Source: a virus (taxonomy: Duplodnaviria > Heunggongvirae > Uroviricota > Caudoviricetes). From it: a stretch of 61,328 nt of DNA. The stretch lies in the IMG/VR virus record IMGVR_UViG_3300042894_001948; one strand, 5' to 3'. Of the stretch, positions 3,401 to 55,484 are shown piece by piece; the first letter of the stretch is position 1; every line of letters starts with the position of its first letter. The position numbers were made by a program, and so were the translations under genes. The notes beneath the pieces are model-generated. The model was not told where the DNA came from, ran no database searches, and was given only the letters and a program-made list of their open reading frames with translations.

Positions 3401-4237
3401 GGTCATGTGTTCTTAACTACACTAAACGGTGGTATACATACTCCAATTTATTTAACTGGACAGATTACGATTAATGGTAACAACTCTTCTACAGGTGCAA
3501 TCGACGCTAATCACTTTGCTATTACTGGTTTAACTATTATTGGACCTAATCAAGGTGCTTGTATATACTTTACCGGTACCAACGCACAACGTCTGCAAGT
3601 ACAAGATATCTGGTTAACTGCGCGTGGTAGCCAAACTGGTACAACACCGTTCGTTGACGCAGGCGGTTATGGTATTTTTTCTGATAACTCAGGCGTAAGA
3701 GCAAGTGATAACAAACGTTCACCTATTCACGGCAGTGATGTTAAAATTAGTCATACTGGTTCTGGTGACGTGTATTGCTTTAGATTTAGCAACGGGTCTA
3801 CCGGTGAATTTGATAATGTAGAAACCAGTGGAGCTACACAAGTAGGTGCTGCAGGATCTGGTTCATTATTAGCGTTTACTAACTCTACACTAGATGCTAA
3901 CGGTGAGGTTATATTAGAAGCATACGGCACTGGATCTATTTCAGTTAATAACTGTTTACTTTCTAATTCAAATACTGGTGTTTCATACGGTATTTGGTTA
4001 CACGACTTAGGTGGTAACGCAATTATTATTAATACTGTAATTTCAGTGGCATCATCTAATGCTGCAAGTCGCATGATTAAAGGGAATGCAACAGATCCAA
4101 CTGGTGTGTTCTATAATAATATTATGGTAGGTAAATCAACTACATATCCGTATCCAGATTTAAATAAGAAAGTAGATAATACTGTTGTGTTAACAGCTTT
4201 AACTGGTGCTGCTGGTTTAACTGCAGTTAATCCTTAA
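422..4237 (+). CDS. Tail fibre / receptor-binding protein
   Basis: IQIRRDTTTNWTAVNPILSEGELGLDT..KIKIGNG N-terminus (Mtd_N/hyaluronidase-type fibre anchor); G/T/S/N-rich; repeated WxFGTxGxLxLP linkers. Confidence 0.75.
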   Translation: MANKIQIRRDTTTNWTAVNPILSEGELGLDTTLNKIKIGNGTAQWSALSFYTGNPSSLVNGLHTVSLNSSGVVTFPGNIATDGNHLTGWSGNLDLNIDGSIKLSADANCALTLQANSHQWAFGTDGKLTLPNSGKIFDYAGGVGVLGIRISRTFQTPNNADSANFGTNTIKLVLSDVEAEEIREYILAGIGVRVWFNQGDSYPITSCVQVSTGVWTITALNMGNRFTTFAASNTLIFIYTGSTPNNYTDFEEYVPVGAGAAVVVFKGGNSWYFDRDGDLSLPGTIRNAMTGDNLLNPTKLINGAHQVVLNVNGTTPYVTFPALAGANVLIQGGEITVDGTGAASAASLASTEDHVRLVANAATSGLRRDWIFGTNGNLTLPKGGSVSETSNTIAFAPPTAAAGQSLVIRPTAGQFTISTDHLSGFVPGESITITVSTQFGSDSGELYYTITGATTEQLGRATTGTLTFSSESTKAVTWTIPVQSSMTTFTFDLTGGTGFPGPGGIYVEQLPEITVTLNGSASSENNHVHLVAGNPTTVDMYLGDDDQYVKIEKNAGNVVVGTNLNTHQWIFGTNSNLTLPNASTISPVSQVGYSYGPYASDIYNNTTGGALSSGTQTVINIGDTVHNNLFDPPVPNATTTTGTIASNGDFDPGTSTGTFDLHTNIIVSGQSLGDLWYRDENNTAAGFTLAQSGVPYTGPVVTAGTLISGYSGWITRTPKTTTYIRWADGSRSQVTGSRVNLYPNSSNSGLITTDNVSGKSFPATLYTANYIPSGTAIGVNGNDWKFGTDGKLKLPGTAYNNTSPNYIHANQGIGLHPTHNTGGTGPELYIYYNDGIVVQPFTNDYLTPNNAAAPLYISGSNLPSGSASTGKTAGNVYIEGGRNAQDNTYGKVVVKSGTNQWQFNSSGQLTFPDTTIQHTAYREPDVTNQFYVDPFAANTYTPTGSILKPFRTIAAAQAEIEARITANTLVPGELNPIFIVLTGSITENVTLTRGHVFLTTLNGGIHTPIYLTGQITINGNNSSTGAIDANHFAITGLTIIGPNQGACIYFTGTNAQRLQVQDIWLTARGSQTGTTPFVDAGGYGIFSDNSGVRASDNKRSPIHGSDVKISHTGSGDVYCFRFSNGSTGEFDNVETSGATQVGAAGSGSLLAFTNSTLDANGEVILEAYGTGSISVNNCLLSNSNTGVSYGIWLHDLGGNAIIINTVISVASSNAASRMIKGNATDPTGVFYNNIMVGKSTTYPYPDLNKKVDNTVVLTALTGAAGLTAVNP

Positions 4238-26237: not shown

Positions 26238-26840
26238 ATGCCCAGCACAATTATTTATATAGATATAAAACCAACTTATCTGTATATCAAACAACATTCA
26301 GTAACAGGTTTAAAATATTTCGGCAAAACTACTTCTCAAGATCCTAAAAGATATTTAGGATCAGGAAAACATTGGAAAAATCATATTACTGCACACGGAA
26401 AGGAATTTGTAGAAACTATTTGGGTTTCAGATCCATATACAAATAAAACTATGTTAACTGAATTTGCATTAACCTTTTCAAAAGAAAATAATATAGTAGA
26501 ATCTAAAGAGTGGGCTAACTTAATACCTGAAAACGGTATTAGTGGAGCAGTTCAAGGAAAACCGTGTACAGAAGAAACTAAATCTAAAATACGTGATTCA
26601 AAGAAAGGTAAACCTGGTCCAAATAAAGGAATCAAAGCAACTAAGCCTGCTTGGAATAAAGGCATTAAAACAGGTAAACCTGCACATAATACAGGTAAAC
26701 CGCACTCAATAGAAACTAGAGCTAAAATGTCTGCTTCTCAACAAAATAGACAACATATCTCTTGCCCGCATTGCAACACAACAGGAGTAAACAGTTCTAT
26801 GAAACGTTGGCACTTTGAAAATTGTAAGGTAATCAAATGA
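26238..26840 (+). mobile_element. Free-standing GIY-YIG (Seg-like) homing endonuclease with NUMOD3 repeats
   Basis: PTYLYIKQHSVTGLKYFGKT, YLGSG; C-terminal CPHC..RWHFENCK. Confidence 0.8.
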
Positions 26841-34230: not shown

Positions 34231-34319
34231 ATTAACACTTGACAAATATTATTTTTATGTTATAATATGCACAAGTTAACAATAATAAGCACATTAAATA
34301 TTTTAGTGTGTTTATTATT

Positions 34320-34666
34320 GTTGTAATTCCTTCAAAGTGACGGCATCAAACACTGGGGTTCGAAACCCCACATCTCCACCATAAAACACATTAGAGGTAT
34401 CGGAGTGGGGCAACAGCCGTAGACTTCCTGCCCCTCAAATGGGAAGTGATAGTGTGTTTTATAATGGGGATGAATTGGATTCGACTTGGTGAGATAATGG
34501 AGACGGCAACAGGTGAGGTGACTGTCCTAAACAGCGCAAAACTTATAGACGCAAAAGCATCTAAATTCGAGTATATGACAGTTGACTTCTCTTTGGAAGC
34601 AGCTGACATGGTAGCTTAAGAAACTACCGCTCTGGGGCATGTATGCCTTATTAACCAAAATACAAC
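34320..34666 (+). ncRNA. ssrA: Circularly permuted (two-piece) tmRNA
   Basis: Acceptor piece (T arm ggggttcgaaacccc, CATCTCC-ACCA ending 34381) precedes the coding piece (GGGGATG at 34466, G3:U70 pair, GGATTCGAC); tag ORF 34551-34619 AKASKFEYMTVDFSLEAADMVA; TTGACA/TATAAT promoter 34239-34266. Confidence 0.92.
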
Positions 34667-34667
34667 T

Positions 34668-34691
34668 AAGCACCCTTCGGGGTGCTTTTTT
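34668..34691. terminator. Bidirectional intrinsic terminator
   Basis: aagcaccc-ttcg-gggtgctttttt. Confidence 0.9.
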
Positions 34692-35883
34692 ATTGACCAT
34701 TTGATTTACTAAGGTTAATAAGTTTTTCATTCCAGTAATTGTAATAATTGATTAATTCTTGACTCATTATTTTTACAAATTTTTTATATACCGGGTATAA
34801 CTTTTTATCTTTAGGATGATTAAATGTCTTACTGAAATATTCAAATCTTCTAATTTTAATCGGGTGACCATAAACATCTTTTAACGCGGTTGGTCCATTA
34901 GACAAATTAGCAATAATCAATTTAAGTGCTTTTACTTGAGATTTTAAATGTGACACGTCTCTGCCATATTCATCAACCGAACCGCCCCATGCAAAATCTA
35001 AATGACGTATAACGCTAACTGCAGCGTCATGCGCATGTGCTGGTATTTCTTGTAACGACGAACTATATATTTTATAGTTTTCAGGCGACTTATCTAAATC
35101 TCTAATTGCATTATAAAACTTTTCTTGATTTGGCTCTACTTTACTTCTAAATTCAGTGCCTTGTTTAGTAACCAATTTGTGCTGTTTAGTATCTTTATCA
35201 AATACTCGTTTAGTTTTATATCTAGATTGAGGTGCGTGTTGTCTAATATGTACTAATTCGTGAACCATATTATCTATGTTTTTAGTGTCTAAGAAGAATT
35301 CAGCTAAACTAAAATCACCTAGTTTCAAATTTCTAAATGCAGGTTCGATTTGAAACATATCAGTTATCACAGGCACATATAGATTCTTTTGTTCAGCATT
35401 ACTCCATCCTCTGTTAACATCAGTCATTGCTTCTGTACTATATAACAAGTCTTTTAGCATATCTATATCTTGATGTTGGAAAGCATTCTTATCAGTTTCA
35501 TAGAATGTTACATAGTCATAACCAGCCGAGGCGAGGGCTCCTGGATTATTAGACTGAGGTAGAATTTGAATATGAGAAAAGTTTGTTCCACTTACATCCG
35601 CGCACACTTTAGCATATTTCTGCTGTATAACATAATGTGCTATCTTTACTATCTCTTCTAACATGTAAATAATATCACTAGGTTGCATTTTCTCATAAAA
35701 ACTACATATCCTGCCGTCGGACATATCTTTAAGGTATACTGCAATGGCATTAAATCCATTTATAGTTTCTAAGTTAAATGTAAGTCCTAACGGTTGTTCT
35801 AAAATATCATTTAACCCATTGTGCAATCCGTGTATCCAGTGAGCACCTGATATTGCTTCGCTTATAATTTCTTGTATTTTCAT
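34690..35883 (-). CDS. HExxH protein with MKIQEIISE leader
   Basis: MVHELVHIRQ; YSSSLQEIPAHAHD, similar to the motifs in 18265-19068. Confidence 0.65.
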   Translation of the reverse strand: MKIQEIISEAISGAHWIHGLHNGLNDILEQPLGLTFNLETINGFNAIAVYLKDMSDGRICSFYEKMQPSDIIYMLEEIVKIAHYVIQQKYAKVCADVSGTNFSHIQILPQSNNPGALASAGYDYVTFYETDKNAFQHQDIDMLKDLLYSTEAMTDVNRGWSNAEQKNLYVPVITDMFQIEPAFRNLKLGDFSLAEFFLDTKNIDNMVHELVHIRQHAPQSRYKTKRVFDKDTKQHKLVTKQGTEFRSKVEPNQEKFYNAIRDLDKSPENYKIYSSSLQEIPAHAHDAAVSVIRHLDFAWGGSVDEYGRDVSHLKSQVKALKLIIANLSNGPTALKDVYGHPIKIRRFEYFSKTFNHPKDKKLYPVYKKFVKIMSQELINYYNYWNEKLINLSKSNGQ

Positions 35884-39304: not shown

Positions 39305-40405
39305 ATGCAACAAGTACACAAATCATGGCCCAGCATTAATCAGTTTAGACAAGTAGTTAGAGAAGTTAAAAGTCGTGCTACCTTTAAAGGGTTAGATGAC
39401 AATGGTGAACCAACTTTTGATCCATATGCACCTATTCCAACTTTAACGTTTGAAGGTTCAGTTAAGTCACACGGTACTAATGCTAGTGTTACTTCTATTG
39501 CCAGCAAACCAACTGGGTTTTGGGCTCAATCACGTGAACGCATTTTAACAATAGATGATGACAACTACGGTTGGGCAAAGTACACACAAGCAAATAACGG
39601 TGTGTTTACTGATCTATTAACTGCAGCACAAGATACATTAGCTAAGTTTACTATTACACATTATTCTATCTTTGGCGAATGGTGTGGTCAAGGCATTCAA
39701 AAAGGTGTAGGTATTAGCAATGTTCCTAAAATGTTTATTATCTTTGGCATTGTTGCATGGGAAGGTCCTGTTGATAACGAAGGCGAACAAACTCGCATTT
39801 ACTTTACAAAAGATCAAATTGCAGAAACTGTTGCATACGCTAAAGAGATTGTAGGGTTTAACGGTGAAGTTTGGCCAGATAACTTATACACTAAATACGA
39901 TTTCAAAACATACACAATGGATATCAACTTTAATGAACCTGAGGTTGCACAGAACATTCTTGCTGATCTTACTATTGCAGTAGAACAAGAATGTCCAATT
40001 GCTAAACAACTTGGTGCAGAAGGGGTCGGCGAGGGAATTGTGTGGCAATGTGTTACTCCGGGTTACGAACAATCACGCTTTATGTTTAAAGTTAAAGGTG
40101 AAAAACACAGTTCATCTAAAGTTAAAACACTAGCAAGTGTTGATATTGAAAAGGTTAATTCTATTAATGAGTTTGCTGATACAGTAGTTACTGAATCTAG
40201 ACTTACTCAAGGTTTAGAATACTTAAAAGTACACAACATTAGTATTGAACCTAAAAGCACTCCTGTATTCTTAAAATGGATTGCAGATGATGTTGTTAAA
40301 GAAGAAACTGATACACTTGTTGCTAGCCATCTAGAAATCAAAGATGTAATAACAAGAGTTAAATATGTTGCACGTACATGGTTTTTAGCACAGGAGGAGA
40401 TGTAA
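39305..40405 (+). CDS. RNA ligase 2-family protein
   Basis: Motif I KSHGTN, FGEWCGQGIQKG, GEGIVW, FKVKGEKH. Confidence 0.82.
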   Translation: MQQVHKSWPSINQFRQVVREVKSRATFKGLDDNGEPTFDPYAPIPTLTFEGSVKSHGTNASVTSIASKPTGFWAQSRERILTIDDDNYGWAKYTQANNGVFTDLLTAAQDTLAKFTITHYSIFGEWCGQGIQKGVGISNVPKMFIIFGIVAWEGPVDNEGEQTRIYFTKDQIAETVAYAKEIVGFNGEVWPDNLYTKYDFKTYTMDINFNEPEVAQNILADLTIAVEQECPIAKQLGAEGVGEGIVWQCVTPGYEQSRFMFKVKGEKHSSSKVKTLASVDIEKVNSINEFADTVVTESRLTQGLEYLKVHNISIEPKSTPVFLKWIADDVVKEETDTLVASHLEIKDVITRVKYVARTWFLAQEEM

Positions 40406-41050
40406 TGGAATTTTTAATAATGATAGCAATAGCGTACTACATAGCAGGTGCACTTTTTGCAACGTTGTCATTTGATAACAGTGATGATGCTGGAAGTTTA
40501 GTGTCATGGACACACCGCATGGTCTTTTGGCCAGTAGTAATGTGGAGATGTTAAGTAATGGTATCAACAGATGTAATTGTGATAGGAATGCTAAGTATTT
40601 CATACTTAATATTAGGCGCTGGTTGTGCTACGATTTTATCAAATGCACCAGTTGTTAAGCATAGTCCGTTTCGCAACTACTTTATTGTGATAGGATTCTT
40701 TTGTTGGCCACTATCACTTCTTTTAATTATAGCATTTGGAATATATTATCCATTTGAAATACTATATAATTTACTAAAAGGAGAAAAATAATGCCACTAG
40801 TACCGATAGCGTTAGCAGTAGGAACTTTATTTGGAATTGCAATTACTAAAACAGTTGCAGCTTTCAAGGAGATACAAAGACTGGATGAGTTAAAGAAATG
40901 ATCAATAAAGGGTTAGCAGCAGGTATATTGTTTTATGTAACTTTATTAATGTATATACATGATAGTGAATACCTGTTGTCACCTATTGAATATTTAGTAT
41001 TATCATTTAGCTGTTTACTTATTGGTGAAATGTTATATCCAAAAGAATAA
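40405..41050 (+). CDS. Cluster of small membrane ORFs (40405-40554, 40558-40791 and following)
   Basis: Short hydrophobic ORFs with SD sites. Confidence 0.45.
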
Positions 41051-41116
41051 AAAACACTTGACAAACAATTTTATTAGTGTATAATATACACATACTAAAC
41101 AACAAAGGTACACAAC

Positions 41117-41422
41117 ATGGCAGTAACACAAGAAAACGTAATTCCTTTGCATGATCGTATTGTTGTAAGACAAGATCCTGCAGAAAGCGTAACACAGGGT
41201 GGTATTTTAATTGCACCTGTTTCAAAAGAGAAATCTGTAATTGGAACAGTACTAGCAATAGGAACAGGGAAACATATGGATAATGGTCAGTTCCGAGAAA
41301 TAAAAGTAGCAGTTGGCGACAGAGTGTTATATGGGAAACATGCTGGAGAGCCTATTAAATTGCATGATGACGAAGTTATCATTATGCGTGAAGATGAAGT
41401 ATTAGCTATCCTAAGAGATTAG
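41117..41422 (+). CDS. groES: Co-chaperonin GroES
   Basis: PLHDRIVV, TQGGILI, VGDRVLYGKHAG, IMREDEVLAI. Confidence 0.93.
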   Translation: MAVTQENVIPLHDRIVVRQDPAESVTQGGILIAPVSKEKSVIGTVLAIGTGKHMDNGQFREIKVAVGDRVLYGKHAGEPIKLHDDEVIIMREDEVLAILRD

Positions 41423-41432
41423 GAAAATAAAA

Positions 41433-41549
41433 ATAGGTTTCCTACAGCAACAATTTAATATCTCAGTGTGTCGCAGGTTCGATTCCTGCATGTTACTTGT
41501 AACATTAGCTCAGTTGGTAGAGTAATTGATCAAAATTGTGAAACCTGTT
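41433..41549 (+). ncRNA. Y-like RNA 1, permuted tRNA mimic
   Basis: ataggtttc/gaaacctgt stem, TACAGCAAC, T arm gcagg-ttcgatt-cctgc, looped acceptor atgttac/gtaacat, D arm gctc-agttggta-gagt. Confidence 0.8.
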
Positions 41550-41579
41550 AAAACTCCTTAAAAAAATTAAAAAAAAGTG

Positions 41580-41608
41580 TTGACAAGCAGTTAGTTACGT
41601 AGTACAAT
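41580..41608 (+). promoter_or_regulatory. sigma70 promoter driving the RNA array
   Basis: TTGACA-17 nt-TACAAT. Confidence 0.75.
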
Positions 41609-41613
41609 AGTTT

Positions 41614-41670
41614 TAGAATGTTAACAGCAACTTAAAATCATTTTTGAATATGACTAAAATACATTCTGTT
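41614..41670 (+). ncRNA. Y-like RNA 2 (small)
   Basis: agaatgt/acattct stem, TAACAGCAAC. Confidence 0.7.
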
Positions 41671-41681
41671 AAATAGTTTTT

Positions 41682-41760
41682 TAGGTTTCCTACAGCAGTA
41701 CTTTGCAGAAGTGCGGAAAAGATGTTCCGTACATATTTGTAACACTATGTGGAACCTGTT
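41682..41760 (+). ncRNA. Y-like RNA 3
   Basis: aggtttcc/ggaacct stem, TACAGCAGT, inner gtgcggaa/ttccgtac hairpin. Confidence 0.7.
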
Positions 41761-41770
41761 AAAAAGTTTA

Positions 41771-42007
41771 TTAAAAAGAACCCAACTACTGAAAAAACTT
41801 TTGCGAAAGCAGGCACAACGTGTTCTCCGGAAGGGGCACAGTGGGTAGTTATAGACTGCGAGTTGTAATGAGTGAGAGTTTCAGGCAATTACAGTGCTTT
41901 GATTCTAGTTACTATGGTAGTCATGTTGGCGGAACTAGTAAAGGGCGTCTGTAAAACGTTGACCGCATCAGCTCGATGAAACCAAAACTTTACGGGGTTC
42001 TTTTTAA
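41771..42007 (+). ncRNA. About 235-nt multi-stem RNA (Y-like RNA 4, divergent motif)
   Basis: 13-bp closing stem ttaaaaagaaccc/gggttctttttaa; GNRA hairpin; Tyr-like anticodon arm at 41945-41959. Confidence 0.6.
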
Positions 42008-42014
42008 TAAGTTT

Positions 42015-42142
42015 TAGAATGTTAACCGCATCATAATTTAATGGAAACTGGTGTCCTTAGGACGTGTAGGTGCAAGTCCTACAATGCAATATTGCATTTG
42101 GCGAAAGAGTAGACGCACTGGTAAATAAAATGCATTCTGATA
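42015..42142 (+). ncRNA. Y-like RNA 5, permuted tRNA-Leu mimic
   Basis: agaatgt/gcattct stem, TAACCGCATC, variable arm gtcc-ttag-gac, T arm gtagg-tgcaagt-cctac, looped acceptor aatgca/tgcatt, D arm gcg-aaagagtaga-cgc. Confidence 0.8.
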
Positions 42143-42151
42143 AACAAGTTT

Positions 42152-42214
42152 TAGGATAGTAACAGCAACAATTTACATCGGACTCTTAATCTGGCAAGTA
42201 AATTCTATCCTGTT
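42152..42214 (+). ncRNA. Y-like RNA 6 with Lys(CUU) anticodon loop
   Basis: aggatag/ctatcct stem, TAACAGCAAC, cgga-CTCTTAA-tctg. Confidence 0.75.
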
Positions 42215-42219
42215 AATTT

Positions 42220-42307
42220 TAGAATAGTAACAGCAAATTATTTAATGGTTCGATTCCATTATTGCTATCTTAGCGATAATGCTCAATGGTGAGCAAGCTA
42301 TTCTGTT
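42220..42307 (+). ncRNA. Y-like RNA 7, minimal permuted tRNA mimic
   Basis: agaatag/ctattct stem, TAACAGCAAA, T arm aatgg-ttcgatt-ccatt, acceptor attgcta/tagcgat, D arm tgctc-aatggt-gagca. Confidence 0.8.
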
Positions 42308-42311
42308 AAAG

Positions 42312-42426
42312 TTGTTATATTAAAATGTACTACAGCGTCTGATATCAACGTAAGTGTGGAGCACTGCTAGAGTCGCCCTTTAGTATACGGTTCGATTCCG
42401 TGATGTAGTACATTTTAATATAACAA
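42312..42426 (+). ncRNA. Degenerate tRNA-like element inside a 23-bp perfect inverted repeat
   Basis: ttgttatattaaaatgtactaca/tgtagtacattttaatataacaa; T arm tacgg-ttcgatt-ccgtg. Confidence 0.5.
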
Positions 42427-42438
42427 AAGGAGATTAAT

Positions 42439-42621
42439 ATGGCCGGTAAAGGTAGTAGAGCAAGACCATTAAGCGTTAGCAAATCTCAGTTTGATGATAA
42501 CTGGGATAAGATTTTTGGTAAGAAAGAAGAACCCAAAACAGAAATCATTTCAAACTCACACGGCAGTCATGCTAATAACGAAAATTTAGATAAAGGAACA
42601 CAAGATGGCGAACATCAGTAA
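42439..42621 (+). CDS. Small conserved T4-like phage protein
   Basis: GKGSRARPLSVSKSQFDDNWDKIFG; AGGAG SD. Confidence 0.7.
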   Translation: MAGKGSRARPLSVSKSQFDDNWDKIFGKKEEPKTEIISNSHGSHANNENLDKGTQDGEHQ

Positions 42622-42838
42622 AGCAAATAGAACTGCAGATCCAAAAGTAACACGTAATGGCAGACCTAGACTTAAATTGCTAAACTTAGCTCAAGCTAAG
42701 ACAGCACTTGAAAAAGCAGGTCGTGGACGTGATAAAAATAAAATTCGTAACAGAATTGTACTTTTAGAAAATCGTGCTAAAAAATTAGGTGTGTTAGATT
42801 TAGTCACAACTACAACTAATGATGCAGAACTTGTATAA
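42605..42838 (+). CDS. Basic hypothetical protein
   Basis: AAGGA SD; 77 aa. Confidence 0.6.
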   Translation: MANISKANRTADPKVTRNGRPRLKLLNLAQAKTALEKAGRGRDKNKIRNRIVLLENRAKKLGVLDLVTTTTNDAELV

Positions 42839-42850
42839 ATAAAGAACGTC

Positions 42851-42934
42851 GGAGGTCGAGCGGCATTGGCGACTGCAGTGGACTGTAAATCCATGCCCTC
42901 TGGGCACCTGGTTCGAATCCAGGGATCTCCACCA
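42851..42934 (+). tRNA. tRNA-Tyr(GUA)
   Basis: Cloverleaf, long variable arm, encoded CCA. Confidence 0.92.
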
Positions 42935-42940
42935 ATATAT

Positions 42941-43015
42941 GTCGCTATCGTCTAGTGGTTAGGACACAAGGTTTTCATCCTTGCAACCGGGGTTCAATTC
43001 CCCGTAGCGACGCCA
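42941..43015 (+). tRNA. tRNA-Glu(UUC)
   Basis: Cloverleaf, anticodon arm caagg-ttTTCat-ccttg, CCA. Confidence 0.93.
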
Positions 43016-43033
43016 AATATTATCCGAGGTAAG

Positions 43034-43558
43034 ATGATACATGATTTTGAAAGAGCGGTGTTGAACCATCTAATACACAAAAGTGTTATACCAATCGATG
43101 GTATTTTTCAAATAGAAGAATCTCATTTAACAGAATATATGTTAATGTATTCCAACTTATTTGGAAAATTAGGTAAAGGGTTAAAAACTAAAACAAATAC
43201 TAGATATGCTAGAAAGTTAGCCGGACTAACATTATTAAAATTAAATTTTGAAAGAAATGCTAAATTTACTCAATTAAAATCCGGTTTAGTATATATAATT
43301 GAAAATCCTCAATTCTTACATCATTATAAAATTGGGATGACAATAGAGCTTCAATCAAGATTAGATACATATCAGACGTATGATCCGTACCGACAATTTA
43401 AAATTGTTAAATACGAGTTTGTATTAGATCGCTCACTTACTGAGAAAAAATTGTTATCTCATCCAGATATAACAAAAGAATGCGGAGAATGGGTTAGTAA
43501 AGCTAACGCAATTGAAGTATTTGAGAAAATATGTTATTCCAAGGTAGCACAGCGGTAG
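43034..43558 (+). mobile_element. T5orf172/GIY-YIG-like putative endonuclease within the tRNA array
   Basis: LVYIIENP..HHYKIGMT...RLDTYQTYDPYR; 3' end overlaps tRNA-Asn. Confidence 0.65.
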
Positions 43559-43612
43559 TGCTTCGGATTGTTAATCCGCAGGTCGGGGGTTCGAATCCCT
43601 CCCTTGGAGCCA
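43538..43612 (+). tRNA. tRNA-Asn(GUU)
   Basis: Cloverleaf, GTT anticodon, G73, CCA. Confidence 0.92.
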
Positions 43613-43623
43613 AACAAGTTTAT

Positions 43624-43915
43624 TGGGATGTCGGCTTAGAAGCAGCCATCATTTAAAGAGTGACCCACAAACTTTGCTAAAGTGATACTTAAACTTACGG
43701 CAGTGTGAAAGCAACCTGTAAGCGTATGTAACTGCGTTAATATAGAGTCCGGCAATATGCCTTAATGGCTGTTACGAGTCTAAAGTGATTGCTATATTAA
43801 ACGGATGAGGGAGGTACACCCTAATGTTAAGGATGTTTTTCCTAATAGTTAAACTTAACATGTCCGAGAGTTAATTAGGATGTCGCAGACAGGTCTTTGG
43901 CGTAACAGCACACCA
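43624..43915 (+). ncRNA. 23S rRNA GTPase-associated-centre (H42-H44) mimic, split by a 238-nt insertion
   Basis: 43626-43661 joined to 43900-43913 gives GGATGTCGGCTTAGAAGCAGCCATCATTTAAAGAGT|GCGTAACAGCACAC, 45/50 identical to E. coli 23S 1055-1104 as recalled; no other rRNA sequence nearby. Confidence 0.85.
43662..43899 (+). mobile_element. Structured intervening sequence, possible atypical group I intron
   Basis: Follows a U and ends in G; P4/P5-like cttacgg-cag-tgt-gaaa-gca-acc-tgtaag; canonical P7 and J8/7 not found. Confidence 0.45.
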
Positions 43916-44025
43916 CTAAACAACAGAAAACTTTCTCCATCAACGAAAGTGTAGTAGTTGTCATTTTTAAATGATAGCTATTACTAAAGCACTAAATATC
44001 AAGTGTTTTAGTAATAGTTATATTT

Positions 44026-44110
44026 GCCAGGTTCGCATAGTGGCCATTGCAACGGATTTGTAATCCGTCGGGGAAACCCATCAGGAGTTCGAGTCTCCTA
44101 CCTGGCTCCA
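44026..44110 (+). tRNA. tRNA-Thr(UGU) with long variable arm
   Basis: GCCAGGT/ACCTGGC acceptor, acgga-ttTGTaa-tccgt, variable arm cgggg-aaac-cc, U73, CCA. Confidence 0.8.
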
Positions 44111-44119
44111 TATTAAATA

Positions 44120-44207
44120 GAAGAATTGGCTGAGCGGTCGAAAGCACTCCCCTGCTAAGGGAGCATACGGAAACGTATCATAAGTTCGAATCTTATATTC
44201 TTCGCCA
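44120..44207 (+). tRNA. tRNA-Ser(GCU)
   Basis: Cloverleaf, long variable arm, G73, CCA. Confidence 0.92.
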
Positions 44208-44293
44208 AACAACAAATAATTTAATTAGTAGTTGACAAATACATAAAACAATGTATAATACACGCATTAGTTAAACAAATTACAGATCATGTT

Positions 44294-44872
44294 ATGGAAC
44301 AATATAAGAATAGTGACGGCACATATACAAGTCCAAAAAACAACAGGACTTATAAAAGTTTAAAAGCATTTACTGCCCACTGGCATTATGCACATACTAC
44401 TAATCCAAACGCATTTGCTGAACGATTATATAATGTAGCATGTCAGTATTGCAATAAAGAATATGTGATTAGTAATCATAAACGACATGAAATTGCATGT
44501 TATTTAAATCCGATTAATATAAAAAAATGTTGTGTTTGTGATAAACCAATTAAGAATTACAAGTACAGTAAAGGTACGTGTTCTCATAGTTGTTCTAACA
44601 CACATTTTAAAGAACTAAGAAATAAACCAGAAAAATATACGCAATATGCAACTATTTGTTGGCACTATCATGTTAAAGAATGTATAGTATGTAAAGAATC
44701 AAATATTGTAGCAGTACATCATTATAATGAAAATCATAATGATAATACACTATCAAATTTAGTTCCATTATGTCCTACTCATCATCAATACATGCATAGT
44801 AGATTTAAAATCCAAATTCAACACATAGTTGATGAGTATGTATTAAATATGAAAATAAAGTTTAGAGAATAG
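44294..44872 (+). mobile_element. HNH endonuclease with Cys-rich Zn fingers within the tRNA array
   Basis: CIVCKE..VAVHHYNENHNDN..SNLVPLCPTHH; own promoter 44232-44259. Confidence 0.8.
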
Positions 44873-44882
44873 TGTGTTGTGT

Positions 44883-44955
44883 CAGGGTATAGCTGAGGTT
44901 GGTTTAGCACCGCGTTTGGGGCGCGGAGACGGGAGTTCGAATCTCTCTATCCTGA
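44883..44955 (+). tRNA. tRNA-Pro(UGG), no encoded CCA
   Basis: ccgcg-ttTGGgg-cgcgg; flanked by gtgttgtgt/acacaacac extension. Confidence 0.88.
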
Positions 44956-45007
44956 CACAACACATTACTAAATTTAACCCAACATAGTACGCGAATACTA
45001 TAGTTTT

Positions 45008-45059
45008 TGAATGCTAACAGCAATTATTACTTTCAATGGTGAATTTAATGCATTCAGTT
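45008..45059 (+). ncRNA. Y-like RNA 8 with Glu(UUC)-like loop
   Basis: tgaatgc/gcattca stem, TAACAGCAAT, atta-CTTTCAA-tggt. Confidence 0.7.
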
Positions 45060-45082
45060 ATATTATTTGCATACAACAGTTT

Positions 45083-45139
45083 TGGATGCTAACTGCAACT
45101 TTAAACTTTCTTTTTATGAAACTTAAAATGCATCCAGTT
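45083..45139 (+). ncRNA. Y-like RNA 9 with Lys(UUU)-like loop
   Basis: tggatgc/gcatcca stem, TAACTGCAAC, tttc-TTTTTAT-gaaa. Confidence 0.7.
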
Positions 45140-45149
45140 ATATTTTACT

Positions 45150-45224
<75 letters not shown>

Positions 45225-45249
45225 ATTATTAATTACATAGAGGTACAAT

Positions 45250-45639
45250 ATGAAACTAACGATTACTGATAACAGCACGTTAAAAAAAGTAAGAACCCGT
45301 ACTCATAGGAACGGAACACAACATAGTGCACCAATTAAAAGTTTTAAAGGTAAAATACACGGACTACGTGTAATTGTAACTGAAACACTTACTCAAAAAA
45401 AGTATTATTTTGTTATACCGTTTGCAGCATATGAACAAATGCGTAGTCATACCTCTCTTGAAATACTATTTGAATTAGATGGTACGCCATCTAAACAACG
45501 AGCTAGCAATAGTTATAATGCTATACCAAATTGGTGGAATTATCAAGTTCCATCAGAAATACATATGTATATCTATAACATAGATAATAAATCTCAAACA
45601 CCAGTTACATCACAAGCTAATAAATTATTTGAATTTTAG
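45250..45639 (+). CDS. Hypothetical protein
   Basis: GAGG SD; 129 aa. Confidence 0.6.
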   Translation: MKLTITDNSTLKKVRTRTHRNGTQHSAPIKSFKGKIHGLRVIVTETLTQKKYYFVIPFAAYEQMRSHTSLEILFELDGTPSKQRASNSYNAIPNWWNYQVPSEIHMYIYNIDNKSQTPVTSQANKLFEF

Positions 45640-45646
45640 GAATAAT

Positions 45647-45922
45647 ATGACACAGATTAGAGCAAAACACATTTTAGTAGAAACACAAGAACAAGCAGCT
45701 GACCTATATAACAAAATTGTTAATGAAGGTGCAGACTTTGGCGCAATTGCTGCAGTAAATAGTAAGTGTCCAAGTGGACAAAATGGTGGCGATTTAGGTA
45801 ACTTTGGTCGTGGACAAATGGTTGGACCATTTGAAGAAGCGGCATTTGGATTAGGCATTGGTAACTTTAGTCAACCAGTACAAACACAATTTGGCTGGCA
45901 CTTAATTCAACGTACTGGTTAA
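45647..45922 (+). CDS. Parvulin-type peptidyl-prolyl isomerase (PpiC-like)
   Basis: IRAKHILV, SKCPSGQNGGDLG, QMVGPFEEAAF, TQFGWHLI. Confidence 0.92.
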   Translation: MTQIRAKHILVETQEQAADLYNKIVNEGADFGAIAAVNSKCPSGQNGGDLGNFGRGQMVGPFEEAAFGLGIGNFSQPVQTQFGWHLIQRTG

Positions 45923-45923
45923 T

Positions 45924-46529
45924 ATGATTAAGGTAATCGACAATTTCTTACCTCAAATGTATGCTGATCAAATTGAGTATGAAACCAAACATGAACTAAT
46001 GTATAGATACAGAGAGTATACGTCACCAAAAGCTGAATATGTTGACTCTACAGTAGTAATTGATAAAAACACTTACGATTGTGGACAATTTGTATGTTTA
46101 TTGCTGCATTCAGATTATGATATAGACTATAAATTTAAAGATTATTTTGAACAACTTAAGGCAGTAGTGTTTACAGCTAGAGAACATATTGAAAAAGATA
46201 TTTGTTCAGTTGATCGAGTTAAAGTAAATTTATTATTACAACAATCGCAAACACCTGAATACCATTATACAGTTAGTCATGTTGATAAAATTTCTAATTG
46301 TTACTACAGTATGCTATATTATATAAATGATTCAGACGGTGATACCTTTATGTTTAATGAATTCCAAAACGTAGATCGAACTCTTCCAACAGAACTAACA
46401 CTATGCCAACGTATTAGTCCTAAAAAAAATAGAGCAGTAATTTTTGAGTCAAACAGATATCATGCTTCGTCTAATCCAAGAAAACATGCAACTAGATTTG
46501 TAATCAACTTTGTAATGAAAGTTGAATAA
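45924..46529 (+). CDS. 2OG-Fe(II) oxygenase-like protein
   Basis: VIDNFLP, HVD, YYINDSDGDT, KNRAVIFESNRYHAS. Confidence 0.8.
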   Translation: MIKVIDNFLPQMYADQIEYETKHELMYRYREYTSPKAEYVDSTVVIDKNTYDCGQFVCLLLHSDYDIDYKFKDYFEQLKAVVFTAREHIEKDICSVDRVKVNLLLQQSQTPEYHYTVSHVDKISNCYYSMLYYINDSDGDTFMFNEFQNVDRTLPTELTLCQRISPKKNRAVIFESNRYHASSNPRKHATRFVINFVMKVE

Positions 46530-46534
46530 AGAAT

Positions 46535-46635
46535 TGGTATAGATACTGCAACACAACTTTGGCTGGTCTGTGGTTTCACAGACAATCCTAGGACTCTTTA
46601 CCTAGTATAAAAAAAGTAAGAACTACTATACCGTT
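46535..46635 (+). ncRNA. Y-like RNA 10
   Basis: ggtatag/ctatacc stem, TACTGCAAC; hairpins gtctgtg/cacagac and ctagg/cctag. Confidence 0.7.
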
Positions 46636-46640
46636 AAAAA

Positions 46641-46784
46641 TAGGATAGGTTCAGCAAACAGAATTTGCTAGTTTAATAACTAGCTTTCTGATTAGCGTGT
46701 ACAGTGACCAGTCATTGTGCAAGCATCAGTCGAGGGGCAATGCTCGACTGTAAAATAAACAACTAAACGCCCAAACTATCCTGC
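46641..46784 (+). ncRNA. Y-like RNA 11
   Basis: aggatag/ctatcct stem, TTCAGCAAAC; three inner hairpins. Confidence 0.65.
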
Positions 46785-46816
46785 ATTCTTCCACTAACAA
46801 CTTATAGAGGTATATT

Positions 46817-46993
46817 ATGTCTAATGAAGACGACGATGTATTTTTTACACTTGAACCAGATACACTTGCAGAAATTTTTGCAACTACTCATCATAAATTA
46901 GTAGATGGAGAGATTACACTTAATGAAGCCAATCGCATAGGAAGTAACATGCCAGAAGGTTGGGAATTTGAGTTTGAAGACGAAGAAGAATAA
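46817..46993 (+). CDS. 58-aa acidic hypothetical (not in ORF track)
   Basis: GAGG SD; MSNEDDDVFF... Confidence 0.5.
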   Translation: MSNEDDDVFFTLEPDTLAEIFATTHHKLVDGEITLNEANRIGSNMPEGWEFEFEDEEE

Positions 46994-47031
46994 ACCGCTT
47001 AACACGCGGTTTTTTATTCTCTAAAAAATAG

Positions 47032-47122
47032 TTGACAAACAATTTTAATAGTGTATAATACACAGCATAAACAATAAGTTTATTAACAGCACATAATTTA
47101 ATATAAACTGAGGAGAACACAC
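47032..47122 (+). promoter_or_regulatory. Promoter plus Y-motif stem abutting the SD of the DUF2828 gene
   Basis: TTGACA/TATAAT; agtttat-TAACAGCAC...ataaact-g-AGGAG. Confidence 0.7.
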
Positions 47123-48538
47123 ATGAGTACATTTATCGAAGCAATTGCAAATCAAGAAGATCGTACTACTAACGGTATGAAAGCACGTAAATCAACTTCA
47201 TCTGCTGTAGTTGATTTGTTTTTTAAAATTGGCGCGTCACGTGGCAAAAACATCACACCTGAATTCGTTGCTGCTTATGTAGAAGATAAAGATCTTGCAT
47301 TACGTATTGCAGCTTGGGTACGCGATGTACGTGGTGGTGCAGGCGAACGCCAGTTGTTTAGAGATATTTTATTACATCTCGAAAACTCCGATCCAGATGC
47401 TGCTAAGAAACTTGCAGCTAAAGTTCCTGAACTTGGACGCTACGATGACTTACTTGTGTTCAAAACACAAAACTTAAAGGACTATGCATTTGCGTTAATT
47501 AAAGATGCATTAGAAGCGCAAAATGGACTTGCTGCTAAATGGATTCCACGTAAAGGAGATACTGCGGTACAGTTACGCAATTACTTAGGGTGGTCTCCTA
47601 AACGTTATCGCAAAACACTTGTTTCACTTACTAAAGTAGTTGAAACACAAATGTGTGCTAACCAATGGGACACTATTAACTTTAGTCATGTTCCATCTGT
47701 AGCATCTTCACGCTACAAAAAAGCATTTGCTCGTCACACTGACAAGTATGCTGAATACATTGCTAAATTAGTTAAAGGTGATGATCCAACTGTTAAAGTT
47801 AACGCAGGTGCGATCTATCCATATGAAATCGTTAAGGGTTTAAGTGGTTGGTGGTCTCAACCATCACTACTTGAAAAACAACACATTATTGCACAATGGG
47901 ACGCGTTACCTAACTATGTTGGTGATGCAAGCATTTTACCATTAGTTGATGTATCAGGTTCTATGGGCTGTCCTGCAGGTAAAAGCAAAACTGTTACATG
48001 TATGGATGTTTCATTATCTTTAGGAATATACTTAGCAGATAAAAATGCTGGTAAGTTTAAAGATACATTCTTAACATTTAGCTCTAAACCAGAGTTAGTT
48101 ACACTAAAAGGTAATGTAGTTGAGAAGTATGCGCAGATGTCAAAAAGTGATTGGCAAATGGGCACTAACTTACATGCAGCTTTTTCTAAGATTTTAGAAG
48201 TTGCAGTTAATGGTAATGTACCTGTTGAAGAAATGCCACAGATACTTTTAATATTATCTGATATGCAATTTGATGCTTGTGTAACACATGATGATTCTGC
48301 AATAAAAATGATTCGTCGTAAGTATGAAGATGCAGGATATACAGTACCACAAGTTGTATTTTGGAACTTAAACTCACATGACAATGTGCCAGTTAAGTAC
48401 AATGCAAAAGGTGCAGCATTAGTAAGTGGATTTAGTCCAAGTATTATGACAAGTGTACTTGCAGCTGATATGGATGACTTTACTCCACAAGCAATTATGT
48501 TACAAACAATTATGAATCCTAGATATGATATAGGATAA
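47123..48538 (+). CDS. DUF2828-family protein with C-terminal vWA domain (TROVE/Ro60-like)
   Basis: RTTNGM, RDVRGGAGER, GRYDDLL, AAKWIPR, MIDAS-like LVDVSGSMG, ILSDMQFD, VFWNL, LVSGFS. Confidence 0.8.
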   Translation: MSTFIEAIANQEDRTTNGMKARKSTSSAVVDLFFKIGASRGKNITPEFVAAYVEDKDLALRIAAWVRDVRGGAGERQLFRDILLHLENSDPDAAKKLAAKVPELGRYDDLLVFKTQNLKDYAFALIKDALEAQNGLAAKWIPRKGDTAVQLRNYLGWSPKRYRKTLVSLTKVVETQMCANQWDTINFSHVPSVASSRYKKAFARHTDKYAEYIAKLVKGDDPTVKVNAGAIYPYEIVKGLSGWWSQPSLLEKQHIIAQWDALPNYVGDASILPLVDVSGSMGCPAGKSKTVTCMDVSLSLGIYLADKNAGKFKDTFLTFSSKPELVTLKGNVVEKYAQMSKSDWQMGTNLHAAFSKILEVAVNGNVPVEEMPQILLILSDMQFDACVTHDDSAIKMIRRKYEDAGYTVPQVVFWNLNSHDNVPVKYNAKGAALVSGFSPSIMTSVLAADMDDFTPQAIMLQTIMNPRYDIG

Positions 48539-54228: not shown

Positions 54229-55484
54229 ATGTCAGCTACAATTGAAACGGTAAAAGCAGAAGCTAAAGAAGCTTTACTTTTGAACAAACCAGCTATGCTC
54301 GCAGGTGCAGCACTATATATAGTGTTTTACGGGTGGGTTCGTTGGTATGAGGGTGTTTATGGATGGTCTGCTGGTTTAGACTCATTTGCACCAGAGTTTG
54401 AAACATATTGGATGAACTTCCTATATATTGAAATGGTACTAGAAGTTATTACTGCTTCAGTATTGTGGGGTTATATTTGGAAAACACGTGATCGCAAAGT
54501 AATGTCAATTACACCACGCGAGGAATTACGTCGCCACTTTACACACTGGATTTGGTTAGTAATGTATGGTATCGCAATTTATTATGGTGCTTCATACTTT
54601 ACGGAACAAGATGGTACATGGCATCAAACGATCGTTCGTGACACTGACTTTACACCAAGTCATGTTATTGAGTTTTATCTAAGTTATCCTATTTACATCA
54701 TCACAGGCGTTTCTGCATTCTTATATGCTAAAACACGCTTGCCTACCTACCAAAAAGGTTTGCCATTACAATACTTAGTATCAGTAATTGGACCTTTCAT
54801 GATTCTTCCAAACGTCGGCTTAAACGAATGGGGTCATACTTTCAACACAGGAAGCTCATTATAGCAATGTAATGATGAAAACTCTGTGAAAACGGTGAAC
54901 ATCCAGAACGGACAATACCGTGCCAAGCTTAGAAATAAGAAGGTGTAACGACTATCCTGAAAGGGAGTACACTCAAGTGAGTGGAAGCGCAGAGCAACCT
55001 ACATGGTTGATGAGATAGTCTGCTCTAACTGGGAACAGTTAGCAGTTCATAAGAGAACGGTATAAGCGTAACGAACTTATATGAACATAGGCTGGTTTAT
55101 GGAGGAGTTATTTGTCGCTTAAATAAGTGGGCGCGTTTACTAGTAATAGTAAAATGAAAACTTTGTGAAAACGGTGAACATCCAGAACGGACAATACCGT
55201 GCTAAGTCTCAAAAAAGAGAAAAGTGTAACGACTATCCCGAAAGGGAGTACACTCAAGTGAGTGGAAGCGCAAAGCAACTGTAGTAGTTGAAGAGATAGT
55301 CTAATCTATATAGGAATATATAGCAGTTCATAAGAGAACGGTATAAGAGTAACGAACTTATATGAATATAATGCCTTTACATTATGGGTTTGTATTTTTT
55401 GGATGGGCTGCACTTGGTGTATTAGGTGTAGTAAATATTGAAGTACAAGCAATATCTAAATTGTTGAAAAGCGATTTAGCTTAA
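54229..55484 (+). CDS. pmoC: Particulate methane monooxygenase subunit C, three exons: 54229-54842, 55092-55119, 55374-55484 (250 aa)
   Basis: Exons join in frame (614+28+111=753 nt) to give ...[32 protein letters not shown]...KSDLA; EQDGTWHQ and TPSH copper-site motifs present; Methylobacter-like sequence. Confidence 0.96.
54843..55091 (+). mobile_element. Group I intron 1 in pmoC (249 nt, no ORF)
   Basis: P1 CUUU|C with GGAAG including U54842:G54851; P3 ctctg/cagag; P7 gactat/atagtc; terminal G. Confidence 0.93.
55120..55373 (+). mobile_element. Group I intron 2 in pmoC (254 nt, no ORF)
   Basis: P1 CGCU|UA with UGGGCG including U55119:G55130; P3 ctttg/caaag (covaries with intron 1); P7 gactat/atagtc; terminal G. 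Confidence 0.93.

Follow-up and report, generated by a model that had tools for sequence, protein, structure and literature searches.

A widespread phage RNA family resembling the ribosomal GTPase-associated center, with an inserted domain in helix 44

The subject of this analysis is an RNA element encoded in a tRNA array of the IMG/VR virus record IMGVR_UViG_3300042894_001948 (Caudoviricetes), a stretch of 61,328 nt that is referred to here, at its full length, as the window. The element occupies about 43618-43921 on the + strand, roughly 300 nt, and its two ends very probably fold into an autonomous copy of the GTPase-associated center (GAC) of 23S rRNA, with helix 43 (H43), the 1082-1086 mini-helix, helix 44 (H44) and the bases of the tertiary core in place. 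This assignment concerns the anatomy taken as a whole and is drawn from sequence and covariation; E. coli 23S numbering is used throughout for positions within the element. A preliminary description of the window had proposed such a stand-alone GAC copy within a phage tRNA array, and the proposal is borne out by 123 distinct sequences that display secondary and tertiary covariation as well as family-specific differences from 23S rRNA. Additionally, a domain inserted into H44 was found to be an obligatory part of the family.

The resemblance to 23S rRNA was evaluated by joining 43626-43661 to 43900-43913. The preliminary description had counted 45 identities to E. coli 23S rRNA in this joined 50-mer, and comparison with the fetched, annotated E. 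coli gene gave the same figure (45/50), while Paenibacillus 23S rRNA agreed at 47/50 positions. The binomial probability of matching at least 45 of 50 bases by chance is approximately 4e-22. In this alignment, G1055 corresponds to 43626 and U1090 to 43661 in the 5' part, and G1091 to 43900 and C1104 to 43913 in the 3' part. The adenosines A1067, A1088 and A1095 are kept as described previously, their equivalents being 43638, 43659 and 43904. The claim that no other rRNA surrounds the element was also correct, as Rfam searched at E<=10 over 43400-44100 returned two flanking tRNAs only. With flanking rRNA absent and H44 interrupted by 238 nt, the element is not part of a complete 23S rRNA and is therefore not itself a 23S rRNA. 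It is present in a single copy in the window; a weak 15-bit match at 26488-26516 (E=0.03) to the covariance model R1, described below, is taken to be a chance match and not a second copy.

All parts of the element lie on the + strand, downstream of a tRNA-Asn (GTT) at 43538-43612 called by ARAGORN and Rfam, whose 3' end is 5 nt before the closing stem. This stem, which replaces helix 42 (H42), consists of a 5' strand at 43618-43626 and a 3' strand at 43913-43921 (CCACUAAAC), with pairing at 8/9 positions. The preliminary description was right that a compensatory stem closes the element, but the stem is not the 3-bp TGG/CCA helix that it gave, spanning instead nine positions with one mismatch. 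The H43 equivalent (1056-1081, with loop 1065-1073 and with G1071/C1072 at 43642/43643) was placed at 43627-43652 by alignment and pair counts. It is followed at 43653-43661, on the evidence of alignment and covariation, by the UUAAA of the 1082-1086 mini-helix and by G1087-A1088-G1089-U1090, the 5' strand of lower H44. The inserted domain of 234 nt (43662-43895) then separates U1090 from G1091 and is closed by GACC (43662-43665) and GGUC (43892-43895). A UUUG linker at 43896-43899, recognized by family conservation, leads from the insert stem to G1091. The upper H44 hairpin G1091-C1100 with loop GUAACA and the subsequent A1101-C1102-A1103-C1104 were assigned on the same grounds to 43900-43913. 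The window thus shows all five features of the family, namely the closing stem, the pair U43661-A43910, the GACC/GGUC insert stem, UUUG at 43896-43899 and location on the strand of the neighboring tRNAs, of which tRNA-Asn ends 5 nt upstream.

The ACCA at 43912-43915, which had been likened to the ends of the neighboring tRNAs, forms part of the base-paired closing stem, and no more than 43/100 members have it. A tRNA-like RNA with a single-stranded NCCA end was rejected on the pairing of this ACCA and on the lack of any call for the element by ARAGORN or the Rfam tRNA model.

The element belongs to a family with many carriers. A BLAST search of the region against phage records matched the same 40 bases in Cronobacter phage GAP32, Pectobacterium phage CBB, Xanthomonas phage XaC1 and Aeromonas phage 4_4572; in all four the matches fall in unannotated intergenic DNA and the split layout is identical. 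One further match, to the Paenibacillus 'phage' Pd_22F, was plain 23S rRNA and was set aside. The four noncoding RNAs of phage PA5oct were considered as possible relatives and dropped, PA5oct being absent from both BLAST results. Pattern scans of IMG/VR yielded 55 loci with the 5' half and more than 120 loci each, as lower bounds, with a shorter H43 loop word and with the 3' signature. Strict membership was defined by the presence of both halves together with at least 7-8 of 10 closing-stem pairs, and under these criteria the number of distinct members was 113, later 123. Statistics on anatomy were calculated from 100 canonical members.

A scan of prokaryotes with one genome per species gave 44 matches, of which 28 were true members, in both metagenome-assembled genomes and isolates. 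These genomes span Clostridia, Bacteroidota, Bdellovibrionota, Chloroflexota, Nitrospirota, the Candidate Phyla Radiation and others, and the copies presumably derive from prophages or from phage contigs binned with the host. The element is also carried by more than 20 cultured phages, both jumbo and T4-like, and the site is unannotated in every one of them. In addition to the four phages above, they include P. putida phage pf16, Pseudomonas phages Milchi, Astolliot and UNO-G1W1, Yersinia phages fHe-Yen9-03/04, Xanthomonas phages XacN1 and XbC2, Serratia phage BF, several Erwinia phages and Acinetobacter phage ME3. Carrier phages come from lakes, soils and guts, the window phage being from lake water. 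The family is not represented in Rfam 15, and full-text searches of the published literature found no description of such a phage RNA. Altogether, these phage GAC mimics apparently form a very large and undescribed RNA family.

Covariation across the family carries the structural assignment. The closing stem is mostly 8-14 bp long, free in sequence and located in the place of H42; its positions 3-9 are paired in 86% of cases as compared to 43% with shuffled partners, and all four Watson-Crick types occur at each of them. For H43 (1057-1059/1079-1081 and 1062-1065/1073-1076), 99% of cells are paired, with pair 1058-1080 occurring as UA42/AU22/GC22/CG6 and pair 1057-1081 as AU88/CG8. The non-canonical U1060-U1078 is retained, as is a variable 1061 facing an invariant A1077, both as in real rRNA. 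The tertiary pair 1082-1086 also covaries (UA57/CG27/AU7). Over the whole GAC core, 98.4% of cells are paired vs 85.0% after shuffling, and the covariation score is 0.344 vs 0.076, with none of 500 shuffles reaching as high a value and with slid controls collapsing.

Conservation of single bases follows the tertiary core. U1060, A1077, A1088, G1071 and C1072 are conserved at 99-100%, A1084, A1085, G1087 and A1088 at 100% and U1090 at 98%. In H44, the pairs G1091-C1100 and C1092-G1099 are found in 100/100 members, and U1090-A1101 in 98/100, where E. coli 23S rRNA has A-U. On the loop side, A1067 is kept in 95% and A1095 in 93% of members, 1096 is A81/G19 and 1097 is variable. G1071 and C1072 face the pairs 1091-1100 and 1092-1099, and a triple covariation of 1072 with the pair 1092-1099 is known for this domain in rRNA. 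The phage fHe-Yen9-04 changes all three partners together, C1072 to U and C1092-G1099 to U-A; in one other locus (L151) the 1092-1099 pair is changed and 1072 is not.

The relationship can also be recovered in the opposite direction. The covariance model R1, built exclusively from phage 5' domains, finds the true GAC in E. coli 23S rRNA with 53 bits and in Paenibacillus 23S rRNA with 63 bits, and it scores held-out phage copies at 45-68 bits; the window, which is in the training set, scores 67.2 bits. The minimum-free-energy fold of the whole 312 nt had an uninformative z-score of -0.29 and mis-folded the core. As a separate observation, about ten members (L065, L079, L088, L091, L116, L117, L122, L146, L150 and L152) have, besides the H44 insert, a second hairpin, 15-40 nt long, that interrupts the 3' strand of H43 immediately after C1076.

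Every canonical member is interrupted at the identical site after U1090, by an insert of 41-365 nt with a median of about 130 nt. The insert is closed by a 3-4-bp stem of free sequence, the first pair of which is GC53/AU32/UA13, and its first four pairs are paired in 91.5% of cases vs 48% after shuffling. The linker before G1091 has the composition U98/U100/U98/G94(A6). Read from this pairing, H44 forms a three-way junction whose linkers measure 0, 4 and 0 nt. Its two halves could presumably still stack on each other in the manner of the ribosome, with the new helix projecting to the side. A helix of UUUG with 1083-1086 was considered and rejected, there being no covariation between the two, and 1086 covarying with 1082 instead; a 3-bp contact of the linker with the loop bases U1083-A1085 gained no support but is conceivable.

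Uninterrupted copies in phage genomes had been suggested as something to look for. An exact scan of IMG/VR for an uninterrupted phage-type form gave 0 matches, and a gapless scan returned real rRNA fragments, chance matches and one divergent variant. This variant, at 3700-3790 (+) of locus L077, was the sole insert-less relative found. Its H43 and H44 hairpin are contiguous, UUUG is absent, the 1086-1090 and 1101-1103 regions differ, and the RNA has a long closing stem with a tRNA-like sequence directly after it.

Insert sequences fall into classes that share modules. A CACCC...GGUAAG arrangement around a GNRA/UMAC hairpin, resembling the 11-nt tetraloop receptor, is present in about 26/123 inserts, the motifs UGAUGUG and UGCGAAA are recurrent, and one class, GACCCUUAGAG, is found in GAP32-like jumbo phages. 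The 234-nt insert of the window belongs to a small class common to the loci L006, L023 and L169. Relative to L023, the window shows 98.3% identity in the insert and 97.7% in the GAC core, as compared to 82.7% in the spacer just downstream and mostly 76-87% in the other aligned segments within 41000-47200. The difference between the insert and the adjacent spacer indicates that the insert is under strong purifying selection.

Comparison of the inserts with other parts of rRNA, in sense and antisense, gave only short chance matches of 9-15 nt, and T-arm-like hairpins occur in 2/123 inserts. A textbook sarcin-ricin hairpin (GCAU-AGUA-C-GGGA-G-GAA-AUGC) was seen at about 215-243 of the 309-nt insert of L103 (IMG/VR contig 3300007354_000004). 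It was found in 1/123 inserts and is absent from that of the window, and the rate of fuzzy matches is near the shuffled expectation. The L103 RNA therefore contains both halves of the ribosomal GTPase center in one molecule, the sole clear case among the 123.

The position of the element suggests how it is expressed. Same-strand tRNAs were present in the fetched locus of 87/123 members, and no member had opposite-strand tRNAs only. The distance to a tRNA is at most 60 nt in 57/123 members, and about half of the members with a tRNA on a given side lie within 15 nt of it. In the window, no promoter-like site is found directly upstream of the element, and RNA contigs of a close relative run from the upstream tRNA straight into it. 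Judging from this position, the element is probably co-transcribed with the phage tRNAs and released by tRNA-processing enzymes.

Genes flanking the element in these islands encode homing endonucleases, a CCA-adding enzyme, RNA ligase and DUF2828 proteins. A conserved partner gene was sought by all-against-all clustering of 2178 flanking open reading frames (ORFs), and no cluster was present in more than 9/113 loci. The commonest families were HNH endonucleases, TerD, the CCA-adding enzyme and DUF2828.

Evidence at the RNA level came from assembled metatranscriptome contigs of a close relative (4 differences, L006 type) and not from raw reads of the window phage. Four runs from two studies each contained one such contig. 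These contigs are unbroken from 43606 across both insert junctions, end at 43917 (in both studies), 43924 and 43949, and have depths of 8-44. The assembled contigs of the four runs, which drop rare forms, contain no joint, no exon-exon junction contig and no exon-exon loose end. The joined 50-mer had originally been treated as the product; the obligatory and conserved insert, unspliced in these contigs, speaks against this. Stretches without RNA cover (43400-43585 and 43958-44019) were not used as evidence, and the exceptionally deep coverage of 43626-43662 stems from genuine rRNA of other organisms. In the RNA runs X15 and X17, contigs match the 5' half and diverge after AAAGAGU (43661), and these presumably represent further members of the family present in these lake metatranscriptomes. 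A G-to-A difference at 43639 in the RNA contigs (G1068A) corresponds to a polymorphism of 16% of family members.

The isolated 58-nt GAC RNA folds alone and binds uL11 and thiopeptides such as thiostrepton. On the ribosome, the GAC anchors uL10-bL12 and meets EF-G, EF-Tu and RelA-bound tRNA, and RelA activation requires uL11. From what the GAC binds, the preliminary description had derived four possible roles for the element, namely titration of stalk proteins, damping of the stringent response, derepression of L10-regulated operons and absorption of toxins. By analogy with these properties, we lean towards the view that the phage element mimics the GAC towards one of its natural ligands. That this ligand is uL11 specifically is a more tentative suggestion, again by analogy. 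A fuller proposal, which we regard as possible rather than probable, is that the element is a dedicated phage RNA gene in which a ribosomal functional center is rebuilt off the ribosome and joined to a lineage-specific effector domain, and that it captures uL11 or the stalk, translational GTPases or RelA to reprogram translation or starvation signaling.

Under such a mechanism, the GAC surface would be presented off the ribosome to a host molecule that normally recognizes it. The likeliest ligand would be free uL11, possibly with the uL10-bL12 stalk, since the bases of the uL11 fold are the most strictly kept, the H42 segment for uL10 is replaced and the factor-facing loop is slightly relaxed. 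As a result, uL11 would be withheld from new ribosomes or from RelA signaling. Simple titration would not be the whole story, as the insert and UUUG are near-universal. The branch domain could represent a second, lineage-variable module that orients or stabilizes the mimic or adds binding surface, and it may lock the fold or keep the mimic from engaging factors.

Several observations weigh against capture of a GAC ligand. A plain decoy needs no insert, yet insert and UUUG are nearly universal, and the function may reside partly or mainly in the insert. The part of H42 that helps uL10 binding is replaced by a generic helix, and conservation within the core is lowest at the factor-facing loop positions 1095-1097. 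Binding of uL11 would also have to be sterically compatible with the helix that branches off at 1090/1091, which is conceivable. From the genomic side, no conserved neighboring protein in 113 loci hints at the ligand, and no uL11 or bL12 gene is found in the complete genomes of GAP32, CBB, XaC1 and 4_4572 or in the nearest virus record. Lastly, the assembled contigs leave room for a spliced or cleaved form of low abundance.

Phage tRNAs are believed to substitute for, or protect, tRNAs struck by anticodon nucleases, and the element could similarly be a target decoy that absorbs host or competitor toxins, or thiopeptides, acting on H43/H44 and so spares the ribosomes. Its location fits this explanation, as tRNA arrays beside genes for tmRNA, RNA ligase and CCA-adding enzyme are RNA-repair or replacement islands, and so does the conservation of A1067 and A1095 at the levels given above. 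Toxins directed at the GAC do exist: Tre23 ADP-ribosylates H44 within 1095-1098 and blocks the GTPase activity of EF-G (PMC8661411), and the H43/H44 cleft is bound by thiostrepton-type drugs (PMC8661411). However, Tre23 is an interbacterial effector, the loop positions that it modifies (1095-1097) are the most variable of the core, and literature searches not directed at that question turned up no anti-phage defense aimed at the GAC. An RNA no more abundant than a tRNA would be a poor competitor for a catalytic enzyme in the presence of tens of thousands of ribosomes, thiopeptides fail to enter most of the Gram-negative hosts of the cultured carriers, and the insert is left unexplained. Due to these factors, a role as a target decoy is considered unlikely.

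Another possibility is that the GAC copy and elements of the insert together imitate the dock for GTPases or RelA, forming a miniature factor-binding site that traps or mis-activates EF-G, EF-Tu, IF2 or RelA. The sarcin-ricin hairpin in the L103 insert (AGUA / GNRA loop / GAA) points in this direction, and the factor-facing A1067 and A1095 are largely kept. This hairpin is, however, confined to one of the 123 inserts, which is not that of the window, and no other rRNA similarity was detected; moreover, it is established that isolated GAC RNA binds factors only weakly without stalk proteins. We therefore consider a miniature factor-binding site quite improbable.

The opposite emphasis, in which the GAC fold is a compact, stable, nuclease-resistant cap presenting a variable insert, with the insert functional, for instance by binding a phage protein or a second RNA, and without a natural GAC ligand, would account for an insert that is obligatory, lineage-variable, under strong purifying selection and built of recurrent RNA modules (the tetraloop-receptor-like arrangement and UGAUGUG/UGCGAAA). 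A mere scaffold sits poorly with the retention, as in rRNA, of nearly every base of the 58-nt domain, including the surface base A1067, across phages of many host phyla, nor is any partner gene conserved nearby. There seems to be little chance that scaffolding is the sole role of the domain.

Removal of the insert by self-splicing, or by cleavage with or without ligation, would turn the element into an interrupted gene for a GAC RNA of about 70 nt. The boundaries in the window are group-I-like, with a U before the insert and a G as its last base, and the same window contains two genuine, adjacent group I introns at 54833-55323 (+), scored at 67 and 80 bits. A few kb upstream of the element, at 39305-40405 (+), the window encodes an RNA ligase (PF09414), and in XacN1 (L270, 530-1180) the GAC mimic begins about 14 nt past the end of a gene with the annotation 2'-5' RNA ligase. 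The Rfam group I intron model (RF00028), which gives those true introns their 67-80 bits, nevertheless has no match in 43400-44100 at E<=10. Inserts down to 41 nt are too short for a ribozyme core, 6% of inserts with linker end in A and not in G, and the putative splice sites are bridged by a simple stem instead of P1/P10 pairing. The RNA contigs cross both junctions unspliced in all four runs, and the insert sequence is as conserved as the core. A group I intron was rejected as the leading explanation on the Rfam negative, the 41-nt inserts and the unspliced RNA, and excision of any kind is very improbable.

An assembly chimera with host rRNA, which the preliminary description had itself raised, or a dead captured rRNA fragment might be suspected from the high 23S identity and from contaminating rRNA in some database 'phage' records (Pd_22F and short records), but either has a negligible probability, being refuted by compensatory changes throughout and by recurrence of the same architecture, both among the 123 distinct sequences and in cultured phages with finished genomes; in addition, A1101, UUUG and the insert are family signatures absent from real 23S rRNA, the RNA is present in metatranscriptomes, and 14 metagenome runs (type 'DNA?') contain at least half of the sampled words of the stretch, two of these runs being flagged as a possible origin of the assembly.

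Comparison with known systems places the element closest to the bacterial 23S GAC itself (the end of H42, H43 and H44; E. coli 1051-1108), with which it shares 45-47/50 bases, the same helices, U1060-U1078, the covarying 1082-1086 and the bases of the tertiary core. It differs in being free-standing and encoded in phage tRNA operons, in having a generic closing stem for H42, U1090-A1101 in place of A-U, a 41-365-nt branch plus UUUG in H44, and a relaxed 1095-1097.

Leaders of ribosomal protein (r-protein) genes capture a ribosomal protein by copying its rRNA site, and the phage RNA is similar to the rplJ (L10) leader RF00557 and to other such leaders in that an rRNA protein-binding site is copied outside the ribosome. 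Those leaders, however, act in cis in cellular mRNAs and copy few features, whereas the phage RNA is a separate gene that reproduces the domain nearly in full, has tRNA genes on its flanks instead of lying upstream of an r-protein gene, and has no match to RF00557.

With phage arrays of tRNA, tmRNA and Y-RNA-like genes, the element shares loci, strand and tRNA-like spacing, and these too are host-translation RNAs duplicated by large phages; unlike phage tRNAs, it has neither a tRNA-like fold nor a single-stranded CCA end. Group I introns and the RNase III-excised intervening sequences of 23S rRNA (helices 25 and 45) likewise consist of a foreign segment interrupting an rRNA-type helix, but the phage insert has no intron core, lies within a stem strand and not in a loop, and is unspliced, conserved and obligatory. 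ROOL and GOLLD are comparable in their phage context beside tRNAs, their modular, ornate structure and their lack of an assigned function, but they are not copies of rRNA, and the phage RNA has no sequence or structure match to them in Rfam.

Viruses are not known to encode ribosomal RNA, and no earlier case is known of a phage copying a ribosomal RNA domain. A trans-acting, virus-encoded copy of a ribosomal functional center thus appears to be a new kind of element, in this case a conserved and widespread phage copy of one of the most important functional sites of the ribosome. It also appears to be expressed, given the contig of the close relative in four metatranscriptome runs. If capture of uL11, the stalk, GTPases or RelA were true, the family would be the first trans-acting mimic of an rRNA domain and would add a new class to the RNAs with which viruses take over their hosts. 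Capture of uL11, the stalk or factors would give phages a new route to the control of translation or of the stringent response. Function aside, this is a sizeable new family of structured RNA, with a tertiary fold confirmed by covariation, and it gives studies of the GAC, including its targeting by drugs and toxins, a compact tool of natural origin. Direct tests are feasible in tractable phage-host pairs.

Other features were noted around the element in the window. Between the mimic and a tRNA-Thr, a near-perfect hairpin of about 16 bp at 43964-44023, with no RNA-contig cover in the four runs, could be a processing site or another small RNA. Upstream, between tRNA-Glu and tRNA-Asn, an ORF resembling homing endonucleases of the T5orf172/GIY-YIG type was found at 43034-43558 (+); it overlaps the 5' end of tRNA-Asn by its final 21 nt. 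A permuted two-piece tmRNA lies at 34267-34710 (+), with an Rfam tmRNA_permuted score of 101.9 bits and an ARAGORN tag peptide AKASKFEYMTVDFSLEAADMVA. Downstream of a tRNA-Ser and ahead of the ORF at 44294-44872, a perfect sigma-70 consensus (TTGACA, 16 nt, TATAAT) is located at 44232-44259 (+), and a similar TTGACA...TACAAT at about 41579-41607 (+) precedes an array of small RNAs. This array (41433-42307, 45008-45120 and 46535-47110) consists of small stem-closed RNAs in which UA/AACNGCA immediately follows the 5' strand and GUUAA follows the 3' strand. A link between the mimic and the neighboring Y-RNA-like motif UAACAGCA was examined and rejected, as the GUAACAGCAC of the mimic corresponds to the loop of rRNA and is variable at 1095-1097 across the family; its likeness to the array motif is probably coincidental. 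The array adjoins the ORF at 47123-48538, which encodes a DUF2828/DUF7788 vWA protein (Pfam E of 3e-47 and 4e-24), and members of this protein family occur near the GAC mimic in only 4/113 loci.

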